Below the pieces are notes generated by a model. The model saw nothing but the letters and a program-made list of their open reading frames with translations, made no database searches and had not been told where the DNA came from. The position numbers and the translations under genes are program-made. A DNA stretch of 64,000 bases from an uncultured candidate division Zixibacteria bacterium. Its GTDB lineage: Bacteria; Zixibacteria; MSB-5A5; GN15; FEB-12. Below, piece by piece: positions 16,669 through 33,379 of the stretch. The number at the start of each line of letters is the position of its first letter. The first letter of the stretch is position 1. The stretch covers positions 992,001-1,056,000 of the forward strand of contig CAWDXE010000001.1 of the NCBI GenBank assembly GCA_963806185.1. The letters are read 5' to 3'.

Positions 16669-17094
16669 ATGACCACCCTGACCACTAAAATTGCCTGGGC
16701 CGGCGGACTCGCCTTTGAAGGCACCTCCACCTTCGGCCACAAGATTCGCACCGACGTCAAACGCGAGGCCGGCGGCGAGGAATCCGGCCACCGCCCCACC
16801 GAGTTGCTGCTCTATGCCATCGCCTCCTGCACCGGCGTCGACATCGTCAATATCCTGCGCAAACAACGTCAGGACTTGACCGGCCTTGAAATCGAAGTCA
16901 TCGGCACCCAGCGCGATGAATACCCCAAGGCGTTTGTCCATATCGAAATCAAGTACACCGCGCATGGAAACAACCTCGATCCGGCCAAAGTCGCCCAGGC
17001 GATCGAACTTTCGGAGAGCAAGTACTGCTCAGTAAGCGAAACCGTCCGGCGGGAGACCCACATCGAAACGAAGTTTGACATCCTCCCGGCCTGA
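16669..17094 (+). CDS. OsmC/YhfA family protein
   Basis: RPTELLLYAIASCTGVD and SESKYCSVS. Confidence 0.88.
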   Translation: MTTLTTKIAWAGGLAFEGTSTFGHKIRTDVKREAGGEESGHRPTELLLYAIASCTGVDIVNILRKQRQDLTGLEIEVIGTQRDEYPKAFVHIEIKYTAHGNNLDPAKVAQAIELSESKYCSVSETVRRETHIETKFDILPA

Positions 17095-17138: not shown

Positions 17139-17528
17139 ATGAAAGATCAGTTGAAATACGAAATCACCAGCGACAAACCGTTTGACACCGTTGTGGCCAA
17201 TATCGAACGCCTCGTTCCCGAAAAACAATTCCGCGTCCTGCATATTCACGACGTCAAAGCGACGCTCGAAGAAAAGGGATTCTACCGCGATTCGCTGAAA
17301 ATCATCGAGGTCTGCAACGCCGGCTTCGCCAGTCAGGCTCTCCAAAAGGATGTCGACGTCGCCCTCTTCATGCCCTGCAAGTTCTCCGTCTACGTGGTGA
17401 ACGGGAAGACGCATGTTTCCCTGGCGCGGCCGTCGATGATATCGCAAATGTTGCCCCAATCCGGCTTGAATGAACTGGCCGAATCGGTGGAAAAGACACT
17501 CAAAGAGGTCATGCACGCGGCTGTCTGA
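17139..17528 (+). CDS. DUF302 domain protein
   Basis: [34 protein letters not shown]. Confidence 0.8.
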
Positions 17529-17739
17529 CCCTTCGCCGATTCTTCTGCTGCCCCCATTTGCCCGTTTCACATTGACTTCTGTAAGTTTTTCATTACCTTA
17601 CAGTTGTCTCGCCTCGCGACGCTGCCCTGGCCGCGCCCACGATCCTCATCGCGACGACACAACGATTGCTCGACAACAGTCAAGATCACCGGTCTTGCCT
17701 ATTAGGTACCCATCTTTTTGTCCGCCTGAGGAGGGTGAC

Positions 17740-20700
17740 ATGCACGCGTCACGGTTATCGAAATATCTCCGCACCACCTGTTTCGCCACCGCCATGGCAT
17801 TGCTATTCAGTCTATCTTCAATCGCCGAATCCATGCATGCAAACCCGTTTACCGAAGTGAAAGCACTCGCAAGCGGCGATGGCGTTCAGACTACGGTTTC
17901 GCCCGATCTCTATACTGATCTCCGACAGGGCCCGGACAGTCGTACCATCACTCTTCCGGTAAGTGGTGACCAGACGTTGGCTCTGGAATTGGTGAAGTTT
18001 TCAGTATTGGCGCCCGACGCCCGCATTCTGGTCGCTACTCCGTCCGGTCAGGAACCCCTGGCGGCCGGCGAAGCCATCACTATGCAGGGCTCAATTGCCT
18101 CTGACCCGTCGTCACATGCCTACCTCTCGATTGCCCCCTCCGGCCTGATCAACGGCTTTGTGCAGTCGGCTGACGGTTTGTTTCTCTTCTCCACCCCCAT
18201 CGAGAACCAGAAAGTAGCCGACTATCTCGTTGTCCAGCATCCTTCCGCCTTTGGCGGTGATCGGTACGACAACTTCTGCGGCACAGAGATTAACCCCGAC
18301 CGCATCCGCCAGGAACACGGCATCGCCGCAGCCAACGACAAGAAGGGCAATCTGATGCTCAACGTGGCGATCGATTGCGACCAGAGTCTTACACAAATGT
18401 ACCCTTCAGTTAGTCTGGCGCGCGACTATGTCGTGCAAGTGATCGGGGCCGTAAGCAGTATCTATCAGCGCGATCTGAAAATTCGCCTCGCGCTCCGCTT
18501 TGCCCGCTTCTGGCCGTCAGGCGGCGAGCCGTTTGACGTCAATGATCTGAGCGGTTTCCGCAGCTGGTGGGTAGGCCATGAGGATACCACCGGACTTGAC
18601 CTGACCGAAATGTGGAGCGCCCGCTTTCCGGGCTCGTATGCCGGTATTGCCTACCTCTCCAATACCTGCGAGCATTATGGGTACGGCATTCAGGCGACGA
18701 TGAATGGCACCTTCAACGTGCCGACCGTGTCCCCCCACTGGCGCGTCTGGGACGTCAATATCGTCGCCCACGAAATGGGCCACAACCTCGGCGCCTACCA
18801 CACTCACGACTACGACCCGCCGATCGACCAGTGCGGCAGTATGGGCATTCCCAGCATCGGCACGATCATGAGCTACTGCCACATTGTCGACGGCTCTATG
18901 CTCAATCTCGACCTGCGCATGCACCGTCTCATCAGTACCTGGATTCGCAGCGATATCGATTGGGCCGGCTGTCAGGAGTATGACTGCAACGGCAATTCGA
19001 TTGATGACGCCCGGGATATCGCGCTCGGCACCAGCCTTGACGTCAATCACGACGGCATCCCCGACGAATGCCAGGACTGTAATAACAACGGCATCCTCGA
19101 CCCGATCGACATTTCGAATGGCGCTCCGGATGTCGACGGCAACGGGGTACTCGATGCGTGTGAGCCCGACTGCAACGGCAATAATTACCCGGATCGCGCG
19201 GAAACCGTCAATGGCATTTCACCGGATTTTGACGGTAATTTCCTTCCGGATGCCTGCGATGCCGACTGCAATAACAACGCGGTCATCGATTTTGCCGAAA
19301 TCAATGATGATCCCCTGCTGGACCAAAATCGCAACCGTATTCTCGACGCGTGTGAAGACTGTAACAGCAATACCGTCAACGATTACTACGATATGAATCT
19401 GCAGCGACTGATGATTGTCGGCGACTCGACCAATCAGGCGTCAATGATCATTCGCACCCTCAACGGGTATAGCGGCGCTACGCACTCGAACATCCTCTCA
19501 AACAGCGGCGGTATCTGGGACCTGGTCGTCAATCCCGTCGATAGGCTGGCGTATATCGCCAATTATGATGCCGGGCGCGTCTATCGGTTCAATCCGGTGA
19601 CAAACACGGTCACATCCATACTCTCGAACGGCTACATTTCGGCCAGTGGCATAGCGTTCCACGATATCGGCGGCACGCAATACCTGTTCCTTGTACAGCG
19701 CCTGCTGAATCGAGTGCTTCGCTTCACCACCGCAGGAGCGTTGGTGGGTACTTTCGTCGCGTCGGGGAGCAGTCCGATGACTTCACCACGTGGCCTCACC
19801 TTCGGCCCTGACGGCAATCTGTACGTAGGGTGTGATGGTACCAACGCCATTTATAAGTTCGACGGTACCACGGGCGCCTATCTGGGCGTCTTCATCTCCG
19901 CGGGATCGGGTGGCCTCAATGATCCTTCCGGCATGATGTTCGACCCGGTCGGTGGCAACTTCTGGGTTGCCTCTACCGGTTCCAATCAGGTACTCGAATA
20001 CAATGGTACATCGGGCGCATATATCGGTCCGTTCACGACCGACGGCCCATTTCTGGGTGTCCCGTGGGGCATTCGCAAAGGCCCGGACGGCCTGATTTAT
20101 ATCGGACGACAAAGCCCCGACTCCCGCATCTTCGCCTTTAATCCGACTACGCGCGAATACCTCTATGCCTTCGTGCGAAATCTTGCCGATGCCTCATTCA
20201 AACCGACCGGCTTCGACTTCCTGCCCGACTCGCCCAATGATCTGAATCACAACTGGATATTGGATGCTTGTGAGTCCGGTGACTTTGACGGTGACGGTAT
20301 CGCCAACCTCACTGATAATTGCCCCGGGGCAGGAAACGCCGGACAGGTCGACTCCGACGGTGACGGCGTCGGAGATGCCTGCGACAACTGTCTGGCTGTT
20401 GCCAACCCGGATCAGCGTGACGCTGACAGTGACGGCCTGGGCGATGCGTGCGATCCCTGTCCCTCGAGCCCACTGCAAACCGATGCCGACAGCGACGGCG
20501 TTCTCGACGGCTGTGACAACTGCCCGTTGGTCAGCAATCCCGGTCAGGAAGACGTCGATGGCGACTTGATTGGCGATGCCTGCGACATCTGCGTCAACTC
20601 GCGAGACAATTCCGACACTGACGGCGACGGCGTATGTCAGTCTGAAGACAATTGCCCGGCAATAGCTAACGCCGACCAGACCGATTCGGACCATGACGGC

Positions 20701-21045
20701 ATCGGCGATGCCTGTGATTTTGACGGCGACGCCGACGGAATTAATGACAACGTCGACAACTGCCCGTTCGTCTATAACCCGGGTCAGGAGGACACTGATA
20801 ACGACGGCATCGGCGACGTTTGTTGCTGCGTGGCCGCGACCGGCAACATCGATTGTAGTGCCGGCGATGGTGTCGATATTGGTGACCTGACCGTGCTCAT
20901 CGATAACCTCTTCATTACGTTTGCACCGCTGTGCTGTCCCGGTGAAGGGAATGTTGACGCCACGGGGGGGACCGATATTAGCGATCTGACCGTCCTGATC
21001 GACAACCTGTTTATCACCTTTGGCACGCTGCCGAATTGCCAGTAG
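17740..21045 (+). CDS. Secreted M12B/reprolysin-like zinc metalloprotease with DCNxN repeats, NHL-type beta-propeller, thrombospondin type-3 repeats and dockerin-like C-terminal domain
   Basis: SD GAGGAGG before ATG 17740. Pro-domain FCGT Cys-switch, [11 protein letters not shown], Met-turn TIMSY, DCNGN repeats, [12 protein letters not shown], repeated DxDGDGxGDACDNCP, terminal [11 protein letters not shown]...[16 protein letters not shown]. Confidence 0.85.
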
Positions 21046-21139
21046 GCTGCAGGTGCCAAGACTAATGTAGCGGCCGTTGGAAATGCACTGTTTCCAGCGG
21101 TCGCTTTTGCTAGTCGACCTCTGGTCACTTGGCGGACAG

Positions 21140-22537
21140 TCACTCTATGTTCATGTCCACAACTCGCGATTTGTCGAAGTCGACACATACTCCAAAGGGA
21201 ACCTTGCACTCCCAGGGCAGATTCTCACACGAGCCGTCATCTGAAGAAGCGTCGAGGAATACACAGCGACCCTCAACTTCGGTCATGACAAGCATATGAT
21301 TGAATAGTCCGGAAAGTTGAAACGGCAATTTGTCTCTGGTACTTATCAGAACCGGCCATGCTTTCACGCCGGCGCTTTCCAACATCTTTACCATTAGAAG
21401 ATTGATTTCGAACGGTACGCCGTGCCGGGTTTTGTATAGTTTCCGAAGATCGTCATGTGCCGGATGCATATTGTACCCACCACTATCTGCTGTATACTGA
21501 CTTGTGAGATAGTCACAAATCTTGACAATACGTACCATAGGCGCATCGTCAGATGACCATAGCTTGCCAAACTGCTTTCTCATGCCGATGGTAACTTTCA
21601 GATACTCATTCAGATATCCTTGAATACTCCGGCCCACGTATTGCCAGTGGGTGGAATCGTACACCCCGCGAATAATCCTGTTTTCCCCTCGATCGACGGA
21701 TGAGAATCTGTTGAAATGCAGGCCGCTGCGATTCAGTTCCGAGAAACCCTGGGCACTGCTGTCCGACGGAAATGCTCTGATATTCTCCATGTGCCAGGTG
21801 TGCTTCTTGTAGGCGGTAGCTGTCAACACCTTGACTCGTTCGACCGCCGGATCGGCTCTTTCGGCCGGCATATTTAGGGGGACAAACAGGTAATCGCAAT
21901 CTGCGCCAATCTTGGCCGTAAACTCGGAAGTGAGGCAGTATATAGGATTATCAAAATGCCAGGATGGCAGGTTCCGCATGACAATTCCTTCACCAAAATG
22001 ATCAATATCTCCCTCAATCCTCGTCTTGAACTTGTACGCGTCGTAGTAGTGCTCCTGTCCAAACAGGTAGAACGCCTCGGGCCCAAGTTTGTCAAAACCT
22101 GAGTAGTATTCGATCGTATATCGATACTCTATGATATCACCGGGCTGCAAATCAGAAAACTGCAACACACAGTATCGCCAAGGTCCCTTTTCTACTGTCT
22201 GAGAATGGTCTTTGGCAGAGAGCTTAGAGGTGATGCCCTGCCTGTGAAGCCTCATCTCAATGTCAGTCAGATGGTCATAGTGAAGATATTCAATAGTCGC
22301 CTCACCGGCTTGCACCGCGCCCGCCGGCGTGAATACTTTTAAACGGGTATGCCGGTCGAAAGTCACACCGCTCTGTTCGGTTGTGACGAGACCGCGATCA
22401 AAAAGAATTACAGCATCCGGATAGTCCGCGGTCGGTTGAAGACGCTCCTCATTCTCACTGAACTGCTCCCAGTCTTGCGCATACACGGATACGGCAAAGA
22501 GAAGCGAAAAGATAGCGAAACACCTGAGTAGATTCAT
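21140..22537 (-). CDS. Secreted DUF3857 plus transglutaminase-like domain protein
   Basis: Signal peptide, DAVILFD, RLKVFT, GDIIEYRYTI, EINLLMVKML...AWPVLISTR...FNHM...FLDAS. No catalytic Cys at the usual position. Confidence 0.7.
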   Translation of the reverse strand: MNLLRCFAIFSLLFAVSVYAQDWEQFSENEERLQPTADYPDAVILFDRGLVTTEQSGVTFDRHTRLKVFTPAGAVQAGEATIEYLHYDHLTDIEMRLHRQGITSKLSAKDHSQTVEKGPWRYCVLQFSDLQPGDIIEYRYTIEYYSGFDKLGPEAFYLFGQEHYYDAYKFKTRIEGDIDHFGEGIVMRNLPSWHFDNPIYCLTSEFTAKIGADCDYLFVPLNMPAERADPAVERVKVLTATAYKKHTWHMENIRAFPSDSSAQGFSELNRSGLHFNRFSSVDRGENRIIRGVYDSTHWQYVGRSIQGYLNEYLKVTIGMRKQFGKLWSSDDAPMVRIVKICDYLTSQYTADSGGYNMHPAHDDLRKLYKTRHGVPFEINLLMVKMLESAGVKAWPVLISTRDKLPFQLSGLFNHMLVMTEVEGRCVFLDASSDDGSCENLPWECKVPFGVCVDFDKSRVVDMNIE

Positions 22538-22913
22538 GCGATCCTCCCACCATCACTCAAATAGTCTCCAGGCCGGACAAATCGACAACTATTACTCGGC
22601 CAAGCCGGCTTGGGCAAAATGGCAATCAATGAAAGCTGGCTGGATCACGGCGCCGACCGGCGGCAGGAAACGGTAGATTTGAGTTGGCGGAGGACTGCCG
22701 GACACCATCTACTCTCCGTGAGCACTCGGGTGAGTGGCTACCAGTTTATGCCTTTTCACTCAACAGGCGAAATTAAGATCCTAATAATGGTGTGTCAAGT
22801 CGAGAATTGCTCGCAGCCGAATTTGTGAGGCCGAAATCGGTGGGAACAAAGGTCATCTTTCGCGGAGACGAAATTCAGAGGAACTGCCCGCCTGCGGGTG
22901 TTGTTTCCCCTGC

Positions 22914-23117
22914 ATGCGTTTAGTTCGGTCAATCTTTGACAATCGATTCACCCGCTTGGGGCTGTTTGTTCTGGCCGGCGGCCTGCTGGGTGTTGCCATC
23001 TCGGTCGCTTATTCGTATTTTGGTTCCACCTGACAGATCATGTGTAATCCATACCTGGCCGGGTCGCTGGGTGCCGGAGTCGGACTTATGCTGTCGCTGG
23101 ATAAGGCGAAAAACTAG
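22914..23117 (+). CDS. Probable small membrane selenoprotein (67 aa, DUF6132-like) with in-frame TGA at codon 40
   Basis: Manual translation MRLVRSIFDNRFTRLGLFVLAGGLLGVAISVAYSYFGST-U-QIMCNPYLAGSLGAGVGLMLSLDKAKN*. TGA at 23031-23033. The TAG stop ends 1 nt before the next ATG. A SECIS-like hairpin follows the TGA. Confidence 0.7.
23053..23072 (+). promoter_or_regulatory. Putative bacterial SECIS element 1
   Basis: ACCTGGC-CGGGTC-GCTGGGT stem-loop (two G-U pairs). The loop starts 26 nt after the TGA at 23031-23033. Confidence 0.55.
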
Positions 23118-23118
23118 A

Positions 23119-23334
23119 ATGCCGATTTTTGAGTATCAATGCCGCGATTGCGGCCGCAAATTCGAAGAGCTGGTGGGCGCAGCCGACGAAGCGATGAGCT
23201 GTCCCTCGTGCCAGTCGCAAAATGTCTTGAAACTGCTGTCGGTCTTCGCCGCCTCCGTGCCGTCCGGTGGCAGTGCTCCGGCGACTGCTTGCGGACGCCC
23301 CGGCTGTGGCGCCGGATTCAGTTGAGCCAATTGA
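23119..23334 (+). CDS. FmdB-family zinc-ribbon protein, probably with C-terminal selenocysteine (ends at 23325 if the first TGA is a stop)
   Basis: MPIFEYQCRDCG...CPSCQS...KLLSVF...CGRPGCGAGFS-TGA-GCC-AAT-TGA. Confidence 0.8.
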
Positions 23335-23368: not shown

Positions 23369-23902
23369 ATGAAGAACCTCGGTCTTAGCGTTGTCGTCAC
23401 CGTCCTGTTGATTGCAGGTTGCGGCCCGGCAAAACATCTCGATGACAAACTCGACTGGCAGAAGATCGGTACTGTTGCGGCCAATTTCCCCGCTGCCCCG
23501 CAACCCGGCTCCAAACCGATCTTTCTCTACTTCAGCCAGAATAACTGCCACTACTGTGCCGCGATGGACAGCCTTTTTGAACGGTCGGAGGTCGCCTGGT
23601 ATATCAACGAGCACTTCCTGCCGGTAAATGTAAACGTGGATACCGATCTCCCCCTGTATGTGGGCCGTGACACCCTCGACTACGCGCGTCTCTTCAAGAT
23701 CTTCAAAATGGACGGATTCCCGGCCTATTACTTTTTCGACACTACCGGTCACCTCATGGGGATGCTGGAACGCTCCATGGACCTGGTGCACCTCAAACGG
23801 AGTCTTGTTTACGTCAACGATGGTCACTTCGGCAAGCTGTCCTGGGAGGATTTTTTGAAGTTACCCGACGTACCAAAGGACACCGTTCGGGGAATCTTCT
23901 AG
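23369..23902 (+). CDS. Thioredoxin-fold (SoxW/DsbD-gamma-like) lipoprotein
   Basis: SD GGAG, lipobox IAG-C, KPIFLYFSQNNCHYCAAM, GFPAYYFFD. Confidence 0.8.
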   Translation: MKNLGLSVVVTVLLIAGCGPAKHLDDKLDWQKIGTVAANFPAAPQPGSKPIFLYFSQNNCHYCAAMDSLFERSEVAWYINEHFLPVNVNVDTDLPLYVGRDTLDYARLFKIFKMDGFPAYYFFDTTGHLMGMLERSMDLVHLKRSLVYVNDGHFGKLSWEDFLKLPDVPKDTVRGIF

Positions 23903-26281: not shown

Positions 26282-26782
26282 ATGTCGATTCTTCGACGTT
26301 ACCCCAGTTTCGGAAAACCGGTTTTCGTGACGATGGTGACATGTAACCGAGCACCCGTTCTTGAACCAATGAGGTCGATGATTCTCGGCAAATTGCGTCG
26401 ACTGGACAGAGAAGGCGCTTGGCAACTCACCGCATGGGTCATATTGCCCGATCACCTTCACTTGCTAGTGCTCCCCAAGACGGCAGAGATATCACCCTTG
26501 ATTCATCGAGCAAAAATGGCGATTAGCTCAGGGTTACGCGCGCGGATAGGACACTCATTTGGGCGACTGTGGCAACATCGCTTCTTCGATCACATCATTC
26601 GAAATCAAGAAGATATGAATCGACACATAGATTACATTCACTACAACCCGGTAAGACATCACCTTGCGATCTCTCCGGGCGAGTATGAATATTCTTCCTT
26701 CAAGCTGTATCTCACTGACGAGAAGTATGAAGCTGATTGGGGCAGCGTGGAGGGGATGGATGGAAGGGACTTTGGCGAGTAG
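26282..26782 (+). mobile_element. REP-associated tyrosine transposase (RAYT/TnpA-REP, IS200/IS605-related HUH Y1 enzyme)
   Basis: FVTMVT, AWVILPDHLH (HUH), LWQHRFFDHIIRN, IDYIHYNPV, YSS; flanked by inverted REPs. Confidence 0.92.
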
Positions 26783-27693: not shown

Positions 27694-30636
27694 TCAATCG
27701 CACGGTGCGATCGGTGTGAAGGATATGAACATATAGTCCACCAGCGCCGTCAGGTCGCCGATATCCGGTGCCGACGGATTCCCCAGGCCGTCGCAATTCG
27801 CCTCTTCCGGACAACACAACGGTGTGAAGCTGATGAACAGGTTGTCTATGAGCACGGTTAGGTCACCAATATCCGGCTCCTCCAGTGTGCTGCAGTCAAT
27901 ATTCCCGGTCGATCCTTTGCAGCAGGTGGTTGCAGGATTGATACAGGTGCAATGCACCGGTGCCGGCCCTATGCCGATTCCGTAGTCGATAATGTACTGA
28001 ATATCGGCGTAGTTGATGATGCAGTCACCATTGGGATCACCGTTGGCCAGAGGCGATGGAGCGGGTCCACCGATTGTCAGATAGTTGATCAAATAGCTGA
28101 CGTCATTGATATCAATGGCGCCGTCGCTGTTCGCATCGCCCGGCATCTGCCCCAGACACGTATCGGCGGGGCAAATGACAAGCGCGAACTCCAAAACCGT
28201 GTGGATTGGTGCACCCACCGGTTGCACCGGCACCCAGCCCGGATTGTAGTAGTTCTGCCCCTGGAAATTCGCCACGTTTCCTGCATTAACAGGGTATCCC
28301 GAAAATTCCAGATGGAACGCCGGTGGCACCATGGGCAGGCAGGTCGACGGCACGACCGAATACCGATCGTGATGTATCGTCCCATGCGGTCCGGATACAT
28401 ACTGAGCGTCATTGTGCACGCTCGACGGATGGGCGGCCGCCTCATTGTCGTCGAAGTACGGATCAGAGATGCAAAACGCGGGTGTGCTCTCATCCGTACA
28501 GACTCCGGCTATCGTGACAAAATGGCCACCGATACGTTCACAGTAACCGGGCGCCATTTCCTGCCAGAAACCAAGCAGGAGAATCACATCCTGGCTCTTC
28601 ATTACCTGACTCTGCAACCACTCATAACCAAACGCCGGCTCGATCGGCACAACCTGTAACGTGTAGTAAGGGGCCAGTCCGGCGCCGTTGATCCAGGTCT
28701 GGGCAGCGGTGGCCAGATCGAATATGTTGGTTCCCGGCATCACGATATTGGTGTTTGCCAGTTTCGCCAAGGTATCGACGAATGGAATCACATTCGACGG
28801 GTCATGATCGTCCGCCTGAGTCATGCCTCGCACCAACGGATACTGATCACACACCGCGGGTGGCGGCGTGGTGCAGGTGTCGAATTTCGAATCAAACCAC
28901 CAGAGGCAATTGGCCAGGGCCACCGGCCCGCAGTGCGTCCACGGCGCGCCGGGTGGCATGCCGAACCACCAGCCATTCTGCTTTTGATCAAAGTCAGGCA
29001 TCCCCGCCGGGGTGTAATCCAGGTCGGCCGCCTTGTAATATTCACAAGTGTCGGGCCCCGCGCCGGGCACCGGAACTATGGCAGAGAACTCTGACGTATT
29101 CCTATTTACATCCGTAACGGTCGTCGTGAGAAAATCGCCGGGAGATGCCGCTGCAACTGTCAGCGTCCAGCTCCCATCCAGCAGCGGTGCCGCGCTGCCC
29201 AGATACGCCCGTCCCTCTCCATAACCGCTCGGGTCGGGACTGGCGAGGAATAACTCGACCGTTGCAGTGGTCGGGTCTCCGGGAATCGTTACCACGCCCG
29301 CCACCGTGGTATTGCCACCGGCGTAAGTGACTGATATAATCCCCGGAAAATTCAGCTCTTCGTTCGGCCCGGTGTCCAAGTCTCCCAGATCATTCAATGT
29401 TACACCATCGCTCTTCAAGTCGATGCCCAACGCGGCGTTGTCAAAGATGGCATTCATGGTGATCCGATTGCCGTCCGCATTGGTGTTGTCAACGGCATCC
29501 TCCCATACCGAAACACCGGCGGCGCCATTGGCGGAGATGCGGTTGCCCGGTCCTATCACGTTTCTCGGAGCGCATCCCCATTTGGCCTGGCCATATTCAC
29601 CGGCCGTCACGCCATTAAAGAGATTGGGCAGGGGGACGTTCGCAATGTCCAGGCCGATGATATTGGAATCGACGGTGTTGCTGTGAGTGAGAATAGGCGA
29701 TCCGAATCCTACGTTGTTGTACCCCTGGATGCCTATGCCGTCAAAATCATTGCCTGAGACCAGATTTCCGCGAACCAGATTGTGATGCGTGCCTTCGGCC
29801 AGACAAACCCCGTCGTGATCGTTCCCCAAATCTGCGGTCCCGTAGATATCGGTGCCAATGTAATTGTAGAGGATGAAGTTTTGCCAGACATCGCCCGGCA
29901 ATTGAGGTCCGATCACCGCCACACCTTCAGCATAATTTCCGGAAATGAGATTATGAGTGACCGTATTCCGGCAGGCGTAGCCCCCGGGTATGTTCTTAAT
30001 GCGCACGCCGCCCCACAGGGCTGTCATTTGACCGTTTCCCTGATCGAGCGTACCCTTGGGATCAGTGCCGATGAAACAACATTCAATCAGGTTATCGCAT
30101 GCCTCTCCGGTCGGCGTCCCCTCAATGCGAATGCCATCCTCCATGAACTGGTTGATCACCAGCCCACGAATGACATTGTTTGATGACTGTACATTTAGCC
30201 CAGGTGTCGGACCCGCTTGCGGTCCGGTGAGTACAATCATCAATATCGCTGTTGAAGGTGGATTGGTGCCGGCCGCAGAACCGGCCTGTGACAAACCGTC
30301 GATCACCACTCCGGATTGATCGGTGAGTGGCGGCAGGCCCGGCGGGAGAATCCAGAAGAAATATGGCCCCGGGAGGGGAAGATTGAAGATGATGGAATCT
30401 CGGCCCAGATTCGCATTGGCCGCCTGAATGGCCGCGCGAAGACTGCCGACTCCTCCATCCAGAACTGTGGTAACCACCAGGACAGCGGACGGTGAACGTG
30501 GCGCCTTCTGCCCCACTTGATTATCAGCCGATTCGCCTGGTGCTCGAATGGCGAGATCTCTGGTCTCAGCAATGGCTGCGGAGGCCAGGAGAAAAATAGC
30601 GACGCACACTACCATACACGCCCGGAAACGGAACAT
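27694..30636 (-). CDS. Secreted multidomain protein: parallel beta-helix repeats, papain-fold (C39-like) cysteine peptidase, dockerin, dockerin-like C-terminal domain
   Basis: SD AGGAGG before ATG 30636. Signal peptide, GSLRAAIQAAN, repeated NxIGTD/NLISGN, DFDQKQ...HCGPVALAN...GGHFVT...ISDP, GDANSDGAIDINDVSYLINYL, CCKGSTGNIDC. Confidence 0.75.
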   Translation of the reverse strand: MFRFRACMVVCVAIFLLASAAIAETRDLAIRAPGESADNQVGQKAPRSPSAVLVVTTVLDGGVGSLRAAIQAANANLGRDSIIFNLPLPGPYFFWILPPGLPPLTDQSGVVIDGLSQAGSAAGTNPPSTAILMIVLTGPQAGPTPGLNVQSSNNVIRGLVINQFMEDGIRIEGTPTGEACDNLIECCFIGTDPKGTLDQGNGQMTALWGGVRIKNIPGGYACRNTVTHNLISGNYAEGVAVIGPQLPGDVWQNFILYNYIGTDIYGTADLGNDHDGVCLAEGTHHNLVRGNLVSGNDFDGIGIQGYNNVGFGSPILTHSNTVDSNIIGLDIANVPLPNLFNGVTAGEYGQAKWGCAPRNVIGPGNRISANGAAGVSVWEDAVDNTNADGNRITMNAIFDNAALGIDLKSDGVTLNDLGDLDTGPNEELNFPGIISVTYAGGNTTVAGVVTIPGDPTTATVELFLASPDPSGYGEGRAYLGSAAPLLDGSWTLTVAAASPGDFLTTTVTDVNRNTSEFSAIVPVPGAGPDTCEYYKAADLDYTPAGMPDFDQKQNGWWFGMPPGAPWTHCGPVALANCLWWFDSKFDTCTTPPPAVCDQYPLVRGMTQADDHDPSNVIPFVDTLAKLANTNIVMPGTNIFDLATAAQTWINGAGLAPYYTLQVVPIEPAFGYEWLQSQVMKSQDVILLLGFWQEMAPGYCERIGGHFVTIAGVCTDESTPAFCISDPYFDDNEAAAHPSSVHNDAQYVSGPHGTIHHDRYSVVPSTCLPMVPPAFHLEFSGYPVNAGNVANFQGQNYYNPGWVPVQPVGAPIHTVLEFALVICPADTCLGQMPGDANSDGAIDINDVSYLINYLTIGGPAPSPLANGDPNGDCIINYADIQYIIDYGIGIGPAPVHCTCINPATTCCKGSTGNIDCSTLEEPDIGDLTVLIDNLFISFTPLCCPEEANCDGLGNPSAPDIGDLTALVDYMFISFTPIAPCD

Positions 30637-31038
30637 ACATCCTCCTGCGCGCAAACGATTAATATGTAGTACCCAGTCTGCCGCGGCTGGATATTTGATT
30701 GTCGCGTAAAATGTGTCCAGGAGCCCGAGAGTCGGATTGGAACTCTGCGACTCCTGCATATGGAGTCTCTATAATTGAAATGTATCCCTGCCCTCAACAT
30801 GCGTCAAGACAATTCGGGCGTGGAACTATACGGGATAATCTTAAGGACTATTATTCACTTTGTTGACGATTACGGTCGCGTTGAGGGCGTTTCTTGTCAG
30901 CGGAGGGGCACCCCCTCTCGGCCAAGTCAATGGAGCAGGCAAGACAGGGGGCGTCAGCAGGTGTCAGTAAGGTCAACCTGGGCACTTGGGACTCGCGCCC
31001 AGGTTGGTTGTGTACTTACCGCTTGGTTGTGATGACCA

Positions 31039-33246
31039 TCACTGACAGGCGGGCAACACACTGAAATTGATAAACAGGCTGTCTATCAGCGCCGTCAGGT
31101 CGCCGATGTCAATGCCGCTCCAGCCATCGCAGTTTGCCTCAGCCTCGCAGCATAACGGCCCGAAGGTAATGAACAGGTTGTCGATCAGCGCCGTCAGATC
31201 GCCGATATCTACACCGTCGCCCGCCGAGCAGTCGATATTCCCTATCGTGGCGACACAACAGCCACCTCCATTGACATAACTGAAGGTGGGTGCCATTCGC
31301 ACGAATGCGCCGGAGCCGTTGGGCAAACGTCCCGTGCTGCTGTCGGTTACCTGAGCAGGAAATGTCACCGAGTCGATGATGGCCAAAACGGTATCCGACA
31401 GTATTACCGCCTCGCCCGACTTGGATAACGCAAACTTGGCGTGCAGTCCTGCCTGCAGCGTATCCTCGTCCGCCCAAATCATCAGATAGCCCCCCGCGGC
31501 GATCGACGTATCAGGGAATGTCCACTTGCCGGGATTGGTCACCTTGTCGGACAGGTGGCACCCCTTGAGCGATATCGGCGCCGCCGACGGATTGTAGAGT
31601 TCGATCCAGTCATCGTACTCGCCGTCCTGATCGGCTTGCGTAGTACCGTTGTCCGCCATGAACTCATTGATAACTACCTCGGAAACGGTTGGCGACGTAA
31701 CGATCACCACGGAATCTTCAAATTCAGCTCTGGCCGGCAGGAAAGAACCGGCCGACGCATTTTCCGCGTAGATATAGAAGTGAATGTCGGAAGTGCCGGC
31801 GGTGATGGATACGCCGTAGACACTATCTCCGGCTGCGCCATCGTTGTGATTGCCGTCATCCAGCATGTCGGCTTTCACAAAACCTTCGGCGGCACTCGCC
31901 TTGTAGCCAAGCTTCACGCTGGCGGCATACCGAACGTGCGCCGTAAAGGTCGCCGGATTACCGATCTCCACGGTTGTCGGCGTGTGAGACACCGCTACGA
32001 TGGTGGGGGCCTGCGCCGTAAATTCGGCCCGTGTATTCAGGTAGGTCACCCGTCCCGATATGAGCGGGACAATGCCGCAGACCGACTGCGATCCCGGCGA
32101 GGCCGCCGTGAGATTCGTTTGGAAGGCAGCATAGGTGTAGAACTTATTCGGGTCGGCCAGTACGTACGCATCAACCAGACTCTGTAATTCCGCGCCGCGC
32201 GTCTGATACCAGCCGTTGGAGAAATTCTCTTCCATCATCGTCTTCATGTGAGCGAAATACATCTTCTTCCAGGAAGCATTGGTGAGAATCTTGGTGATGA
32301 TCGGGTACTTGGCATTGGAAACATTGGTCAACGGATTCAACTGCTGCATCCCGGACAACGTCAGATTGCCTGACCCAATCAACTGGGTGAAGCCGCCGAA
32401 ATTCATATTGAGATCCTAGATGATCGGATTGAACCGCTTGTCGTCATTGCGATACAAATAGTAATTGTGGTTCATGCTAATCGGGGCATCGAGATTCACC
32501 AGAAGAAAGTCATACGCCAGCATCCAGAGGTGCCGGTCGATGTCGAGTACTTTCGAAACGGCCGTGGAATAATTATTCAACGTGTCGAGAAAGTCGATCA
32601 GATCGGCCCAGCCCTCATCGGAGTCCAGTTCGTAAAGCATGCTGTAGTTGGCCGAATCCACTCCGAGATACCCCCAGACGGCATAGGTACTCGACAAGCC
32701 GTCATATGCCCCTTTAAAGCAGGCGTTCTCGTCGTTGCCAAAGTGCGTTCGCAGGAAAAGCTTGTCGATATCCTGCACGCTGACATAAAAGCCGATCAGC
32801 GTGCCGTTGACATAGACATTGGTATAATTGGCCAAACAGGCCGGCATGTATTTGCGTGCTATTTCGTAGCCAAGTACCTCACGAACAAAACTCGGATCAC
32901 TCCAGACATTGGCCAGCTTCAGTGTCCCATATCCTTCGATCTCCTGGTTGTCGATGATGTAGTCGAGCTTGATGTTGAACGGGTTCTTTACCTGGTTTGC
33001 CCGATAGGTGCTGTTCCCCTTATACCGGACGCCGACACTGTCATACTGTACACCATCGATAATAACCGTGCCAAGCAGGCGTTCGTCCAGCTCACGAGCG
33101 AACAGGCTGTCGAGAATGGCGTCCCAGTTGGACTGGGTAAATATCAATTGGATCGTATGAATATTGGTTGGATCGTAGAATCCCTGACCGGCAGCGGACT
33201 GGGCCAGTAGCCCGAACACGATGATGGCTAGTACAAGTTGCTTCAT
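31039..33246 (-). pseudogene. Secreted CotH-kinase-family protein with lamin-tail domain and dockerin-like C-terminus, interrupted by an in-frame TAG
   Basis: VGVRYKGNST, KNPFNIKLD, DPSFVRE, HNYYLY, then FNPII-TAG-DLN (32416-32418) in frame with the downstream ORF. VVINEFMADN...DWIELYN marks the lamin-tail domain; CCVATIGNIDC is terminal. Confidence 0.85.
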
Positions 33247-33379
33247 GGGCGGACCCTCGTGGCTGGAATGTTGCTGGTACCTGGCGATAACGCACAAGTC
33301 CACCTATAGATTAATCGGAATCAGCCGATTTCGGGCGAGGTTCATGTAACAATTTGTATATCCCTCACGCTGAAATTGA

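Follow-up and report, generated by a model that had tools for sequence, protein, structure and literature searches.

The question raised by this locus is whether a short reading frame with a TGA at its fortieth codon encodes a selenoprotein and, if so, to which protein family the product belongs. In the window (the whole 64,000-nt stretch of Zixibacteria DNA that was analysed), the frame starts with the ATG at 22914, ends with a TAG (23115–23117), and reads through the TGA as the 67-codon translation MRLV...AYSYFGST*QIMCNPYLAG...DKAKN* (asterisks, TGA and stop). There is no alternative start (ATG, GTG, or TTG) upstream in this frame, and the gene is absent from the table-11 list of open reading frames (60 aa threshold). 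Hydropathy peaks of 2.1 and about 1.0 correspond to two helices, which an AlphaFold model based on the 118-row family alignment places at the positions given in Table 1 with modest confidence (mean pLDDT 63.5, pTM 0.35); by hydropathy and this model, the product has the size (about 60 aa) and the two hydrophobic helices of DUF6132 proteins. Each helix carries invariant glycines in the family alignment, and a glycine 17 residues after the Sec position is found in all 88 Sec forms. The preliminary description had proposed a 67-aa two-TM protein with an in-frame TGA in a UxxxC motif, closing 1 nt before the next gene, and we recovered the same coordinates, Cys44, two predicted helices, and spacing (TAG ending at 23117, ATG of an FmdB-family gene at 23119).

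Table 1 Features of the candidate selenoprotein locus and its neighbours (positions in the window)
Feature	Position	Strand	Basis
67-aa gene, predicted selenoprotein, DUF6132-related two-helix membrane protein	22914..23117	+	frame and homologue profile
In-frame TGA, codon 40, predicted Sec	23031..23033	+	aligned with second Cys of DUF6132 GCxxGxC
Cys44 (TGT), predicted partner of Sec40 (UxxxC)	23043..23045	+	partner-Cys census of relatives
Predicted helix 1, residues 12–36, hydrophobic, invariant Gly26	22947..23021	+	AlphaFold and alignment
Predicted helix 2, residues 46–66, G53xxxG57	23049..23111	+	AlphaFold and alignment
SECIS-like hairpin, loop CGGGUC	23053..23072	+	consensus fit; not more stable than shuffles
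FmdB-family zinc ribbon, conserved downstream neighbour	23119..23325	+	TIGR02605, 56.5 bits vs cut-off 31.3
Thioredoxin-like lipoprotein with CHYC, frequent but inconstant neighbour	23369..23902	+	domain match
OsmC-like gene, directly upstream of DUF302 in relatives	16669..17094	+	domain match
DUF302 gene, directly upstream of selenoprotein gene in relatives	17139..17528	+	domain match
Weak sigma-70-like site, 9/12 matches	22760..22788	+	consensus match only; 2 found vs 0.6 expected

Homologues were collected from 201 genomes of the phylum. The 67-aa protein (P0001) alone matches 85 of these genomes, and a single joint profile, which finds both the present branch and the classical DUF6132 branch, matches 120 with one clear copy each (one genome, G122, holds an additional weak, broken match). 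All 120 loci, including that of the source genome, were fetched; 118 were parsed and two were read separately. At the Sec column, 89 loci have TGA, 30 have a Cys codon (TGC or TGT), one has AGA, and none has TGG, a recurrence of TGA well beyond chance, although the sampled genomes are kin, so that neither these counts nor the pair counts given below are independent. Codon 40 thus aligns with TGA or Cys in 119 of 120 loci, as expected if the TGA occupies a Cys position, and the alignment to non-Cys residues that would have spoken against this idea was not borne out. The exception (L050, G193:C52) has AGA (Arg) in a gene that is otherwise intact and whose nearest relatives have TGA, which reflects either a point change or an assembly error. 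Past the TGA, the frame continues without a stop for 23–37 residues in 88 out of 88 parsed Sec forms (23–40 residues in 29 parsed Cys forms), and conservation at the protein level, which the preliminary description had left to be checked, extends beyond this codon, with pN/pS values of 0.26 before and 0.32 after it (46 related pairs, 72–98% DNA identity). In the same pairs, pS drops from 0.49 to 0.34 past the TGA, as expected from an RNA element. Because the post-TGA frame is conserved and the TGA/Cys pattern recurs across genomes, both a miscall and a pseudogene are rejected.

The source genome contains selA, selB, selC, and selD, with profile scores of 498 bits (selA), 330 bits (selB), and 390 bits (selD), each above its cut-off, and a tRNA-Sec(TCA), which is the sole TCA-anticodon tRNA found; its selD carries an in-frame TGA of its own. 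TGA is the stop codon of 516 out of 1091 frames of at least 400 codons, and TGG usage is normal (12.7 per 1000 codons). Given that TGA is an ordinary stop and TGG is used normally, a code in which TGA specifies Trp is excluded. Because selA is present in 191 of the 201 phylum genomes, among them genomes with Cys forms, covariation of the family with the Sec machinery is uninformative. One selA match elsewhere in the sample (G150:C64:9741-11075) has one in-frame TGA, which could be a break, a reading past the true stop, or recoding. The Sec machinery, the TGA/Cys census, and the conservation past the TGA support the selenoprotein form that had been suggested as possible, and we put at about 0.93 the probability that the 67-codon gene encodes a predicted two-helix membrane selenoprotein with Sec at residue 40.

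A hairpin downstream of the TGA had also been described, and this claim holds in part. The bSECIS consensus consists of a 3–9 nt loop with a G in its first two positions, a spacing of 16–37 nt, and an MFE of −7.5 or lower (PMC13188914). The hairpin exists as written and is the MFE fold (−12.5 kcal/mol), and it formally fits the consensus, with a 6-nt loop after 26 nt past the UGA and a G at loop position 2. Its stability does not exceed that of shuffled sequences: after dinucleotide shuffling, 192 of 200 sequences folded just as stably (z +1.39), and further shuffle tests gave z values of +0.5 to +0.6. The selD hairpin of the source genome scored z −1.26 in the same test. Across the family, our bSECIS filter, which allowed loops up to 14 nt and is passed by about 37% of synonymous shuffles, was passed by 45 of 88 Sec forms (32.6 expected) and 8 of 29 Cys forms (7.4 expected). 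The mean hairpin z is −0.96 in Sec forms versus −0.46 in Cys forms, and the best pairing register reaches z 5.5 in Sec forms versus 1.2 in Cys forms, with several other registers at 3–4. These family-wide data give modest support to a variable hairpin after the TGA.

To place the gene in a family, we compared it with DUF6132 (PF19628; gathering cut-off 23.2 bits), to which it had been likened. P0001 has no match to PF19628 at E ≤ 1 and is therefore not a member by the Pfam cut-off. However, 30 of the 118 family members match PF19628 at E ≤ 0.01, and two bridging members with a CxxxC motif lie above the cut-off (L041, 29.0 bits; L047, 24.9 bits). PF19628 matches occur in 11 of the 201 phylum genomes, none of them from the family or order of the source. 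An hhalign comparison of this branch with Pfam-positive DUF6132 sequences gave a probability of 96.8 (E 2.7e-10, 54 ungapped columns). Based on this match, the bridging sequences, and the shared FmdB neighbour, we regard the gene as part of a divergent homologous branch of DUF6132 rather than a member by cut-off, and homology of P0001 to DUF6132 is supported by profile comparison. The likeness to the Cys forms of DUF6132 includes the length (about 60 aa), two helices, the x-[IL]-x-x-[NS]-P pattern after the Cys column, and an FmdB neighbour within the phylum, whereas the present branch differs in having Sec at the second Cys, a Cys at +4, and OsmC-DUF302 neighbours. Both positions of the GCxxGxC motif are present in 9 of 9 rows of the classical alignment (A2), one of them as Sec. 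In P0001 the first Cys is replaced by Tyr35, the second corresponds to the TGA, and a Cys (Cys44) stands at +4 in place of the Ser of ITSNP in classical members. The DUF6132-like character thus stands as homology, but the score falls below the PF19628 cut-off and the first Cys of the motif is absent, the TGA taking the place of the second.

The partner Cys has shifted from −5 in the classical form to +4 in the present one, turning CxxGxU into UxxxC within one phylum. Of 118 loci, 114 have a single partner Cys, which lies either upstream (−3 to −8) or at +4; two loci have both and two have neither. Sub-branches that lack the +4 Cys mostly have an upstream Cys, and switches of side occur in separate sub-branches. 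Two Sec forms (L098 in G138 and L103 in G194) have no partner Cys within −12 to +11 of U. A Sec form with the classical motif is found in family f5 (12 of 16 loci). In a sample of another phylum, one of 25 PF19628 matches in 301 genomes (L230:455-677, G279) is a stand-alone Sec form with CAGSTU; its hairpin is strong (−25.1 kcal/mol, z −2.35), and its genome has selB. Of the best 80 classical-form loci from metagenomes, 79 have Cys and one has TGA, in a ranking by E-value that favours Cys. A quick tree built from the gene core and 45 aa of FmdB (96 columns, 115 rows; L041, L109, L118, L117, and L128 omitted) places Sec forms on either side of its deepest split (SH-aLRT 98) with Cys forms beside them, and 42 of its 112 forks are open. 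This distribution implies several gains or several losses of Sec, between which the tree cannot tell.

A word-indexed protein search with P0001 alone gave four candidates, none significant, and phmmer with P0001 against 1.84 billion representatives gave 12 matches, eight of them true short homologues; the other four, unrelated repeat-rich proteins, were dropped. A genome-contig scan gave three loci, two of which (L036 and L037) duplicate known loci and one of which (L038) is a chance match; none of them entered the census. Solved structures gave nothing meaningful by sequence (best E 0.025) or by fold (none at E ≤ 0.001). When the Cys homologue P0005 was used against the ESM Atlas, the top three hits were DUF6132 clusters (0.86–0.87, recognition 2134), which we treat as a lead only.

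New selenoprotein families appear regularly. Like the bacterial selenoproteins catalogued in Table 1 of PMC13188914 (119 families), the present gene has an in-frame UGA aligned with Cys and lies in a genome with selABCD; a candidate hairpin follows its UGA. That table contains no DUF6132/PF19628 entry and no UxxxC motif, its membrane entries (YeeE/YedE, MerT-like, SaoP, and SO_0444) being other families, and neither DUF6132 nor CNPY appears in four supplements of PMC12013277. NCBIfam 20.0 has no relevant model for any of the 118 members, and full-text searches of the literature for DUF6132/PF19628, UxxxC, CxxGxU, and CxxxxU returned only unrelated papers. In the sources covered, the Sec form of DUF6132 is therefore a family missing from the 2026 catalogue; this coverage stops before Table S2 of the BSepDB supplement (PMC13326102), which could bear on its novelty. 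YeeE/YedE (PF04143), a known family of membrane selenoproteins, shares the motifs NPY[IL]AG and G[CU]xSG by eye, but its proteins are far larger than 67 aa, and none of six YeeE loci was matched by profile A3 or A4 at E ≤ 1, which leaves homology to PF04143 unsupported.

The gene neighbourhood differs in part between the two branches. FmdB lies downstream in 115 of 118 loci, in both branches, and its start falls −14 to +20 nt from the stop in 107 of 118. The usual order in the present branch is OsmC, DUF302, selenoprotein gene, and FmdB, with OsmC in 72 of 94 loci and DUF302 in 78 of 94, versus DUF302 in 0 of 24 loci of the classical branch. In the source genome, two genes at 17470–22537 stand between DUF302 and the selenoprotein gene: an M12 metallopeptidase gene containing TSP3 repeats on the plus strand and a DUF3857/transglutaminase-like gene on the minus strand. 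They were probably inserted in this lineage, breaking up the operon, and the sigma-70-like site in Table 1 is a possible promoter of the gene's own after this split. The thioredoxin-like lipoprotein is a neighbour in 30 of 118 loci (tblastn), and 9 of 22 clustered copies have no CxxC. Among the best 80 classical metagenome loci, FmdB follows in only two, and a thioredoxin, rhodanese, or CcdA-like neighbour was recognised by motif in 47 (35, 14, and 5, respectively). These counts replace a single ‘thioredoxin’ cluster covering 53 of the 80 loci, which had strung together thioredoxins, rhodaneses, and CcdA-like proteins. Other recurrent neighbours of the classical form are DUF1858, ArsR, YgaP-like, DUF302, and pyridine nucleotide-disulfide reductase proteins.

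Elsewhere in the window, three large secreted-looking proteins (17470–21045, 27694–30759, and 31039–32406) share a short C-terminal domain of the pattern CC..GN.DC....DIGDLT.LID.LF, which we take to be dockerin-like. The consecutive frames 32416–33303 and 31039–32406 (−) read as one, presumably CotH-like, protein in two pieces (31039–33303), possibly a frameshift or a split gene. A 166-aa ORF (26282–26782, +) adjoins an SPFH gene and, by its motifs, is presumably an IS200/REP-associated (Y1) transposase.

Clues to function come from longer homologues. Of 67 such proteins, 26 have a C-terminal rhodanese, 16 a thioredoxin, and two a thiol peroxidase domain; every fusion is a Cys form of the classical branch, and the rhodanese fusions include some with named NCBI records. 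Some of the fusions (P0065, P0069, and P0072) look like read-through of two genes. YgaP-type membrane rhodaneses resemble this architecture in having a two-helix hairpin joined to or adjoining a rhodanese, but their hairpin belongs to a separate Pfam family (PF11127), which adjoins DUF6132 in 7 of the 80 loci and is part of the same protein in 3 of the 67 long homologues; the likeness is one of analogy only. Taken with the conserved U/C pair and the neighbours, the rhodanese and thioredoxin fusions point to a role in thiol redox or sulfur transfer. On balance, we favour a reading from sequence in which Sec40 and Cys44 would form a reversible selenium-sulfur redox or sulfur-relay pair at the membrane surface.

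The charge distribution bears on the orientation of this pair: N-terminal tails have a mean of 3.7 K+R versus 0.3 D+E, and loops have 0.2 K+R, which by the positive-inside rule suggests that both termini are cytoplasmic and the U/C loop is at the outer face. In the mechanism that we propose, SelB with Sec-tRNA would very probably bind the post-UGA hairpin, leading to insertion of Sec. The helical hairpin would then likely insert so that its two ends remain cytoplasmic while the U/C loop lies at the outer face of the inner membrane. Finally, by a somewhat narrower preference, Sec40 and Cys44 may cycle between selenol/thiol and selenenylsulfide states or carry sulfane sulfur. Their partners in this thiol-redox or sulfur-transfer route would be of the thioredoxin, rhodanese, and OsmC types, and Sec would serve as a faster stand-in for Cys and not bring a new function. 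In this topology the fused domains, which follow helix 2, lie on the side opposite from the loop, and direct contact between them is unexplained, so that either the topology is wrong or an intermediate step exists. A speculative and rather improbable reading is that DUF6132 hairpins act as a minimal transmembrane relay, in which an oligomer would pass electrons or sulfane sulfur between a cytoplasmic thioredoxin or rhodanese and the outward Sec/Cys loop, selenium having been adopted more than once while the partner Cys changed sides. If true, 60 residues would do what the large CcdA/DsbD or YeeE proteins do.

Other explanations of the pair or of the TGA were weighed against this redox or sulfur-transfer reading. 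It is unlikely, though the best of these alternatives, that the U/C pair of the selenoprotein is a binding site for soft metals or metalloids (Cu, Hg, or As), serving in sensing or hand-off. Small Mer transporters, with their Cys pairs, provide the model for such a comparison, and a two-ligand loop on a small hairpin, the FmdB zinc ribbon that follows in 115 of 118 loci, and ArsR-type regulators (8 of 80, one cluster) and CusB/HlyD efflux proteins (8 of 80) near classical forms are in keeping with it. However, 44 of the 67 longer homologues are fused to rhodanese, thioredoxin, or thiol peroxidase, no Mer or metal-transport family was matched among the 118 members, and the variable U/C spacing (−4 to −7, or +4) would be better tolerated by a redox pair than by a metal site. 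Less likely still is a purely structural U–C bond, which would not turn over but hold the loop shut in a protein that serves a larger membrane complex as small subunit or anchor; this would suit the invariant glycines on both helices, the single copy per genome, and the retention of the U/C pair at variable positions, but Sec forms, with Cys forms alongside, fall on either side of the tree's deepest split, and recurrent Sec use is typical of catalytic redox sites. Uncharacterised selenoproteins are also regarded as mostly likely redox proteins in PMC13188914. The close FmdB start (107 of 118 loci) could further suggest a selenium-sensing leader, in which read-through of the UGA carries ribosomes to the coupled start and FmdB is made only with selenium; we consider this very improbable, because the coupling is identical in Cys forms, the protein sequence is under purifying selection, and FmdB follows only 2 of the best 80 classical metagenome loci. 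Least probable of all, and largely refuted by the census, the post-TGA conservation, and the code usage, is that the TGA acts as a genuine stop, stems from a miscall, marks a broken pseudogene, or encodes Trp under another code. In favour of this, the gene's hairpin is weak, the codon is not spanned by raw reads (a 151-nt contig identical over 23026–23176 was not counted as bridging, since the TGA is only five letters from its end), and the database proteins P0004 and P0013, available as protein sequences only, have Trp at the Sec column (probably gene-caller readings under a TGA=Trp code). Against it, the same TGA recurs in 89 of 120 genomes, the second helix is conserved, TGG is absent from the column, and TGA closes long frames in a genome whose TGG use is normal and whose only TCA tRNA is tRNA-Sec.

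The predicted Sec gene is thus very probably a new selenium variant of the known but uncharacterised DUF6132 family. It would add to the bacterial selenoproteome a family whose gene is cut at 39 codons by table-11 gene calling, in a phylum in which selA is widespread (191 of 201 sampled genomes). The shift from CxxGxU to UxxxC within this phylum offers a natural experiment on the position of the partner Cys. With Sec pointing to the residue that is likely active, this uncharacterised Pfam family becomes testable as a redox protein.
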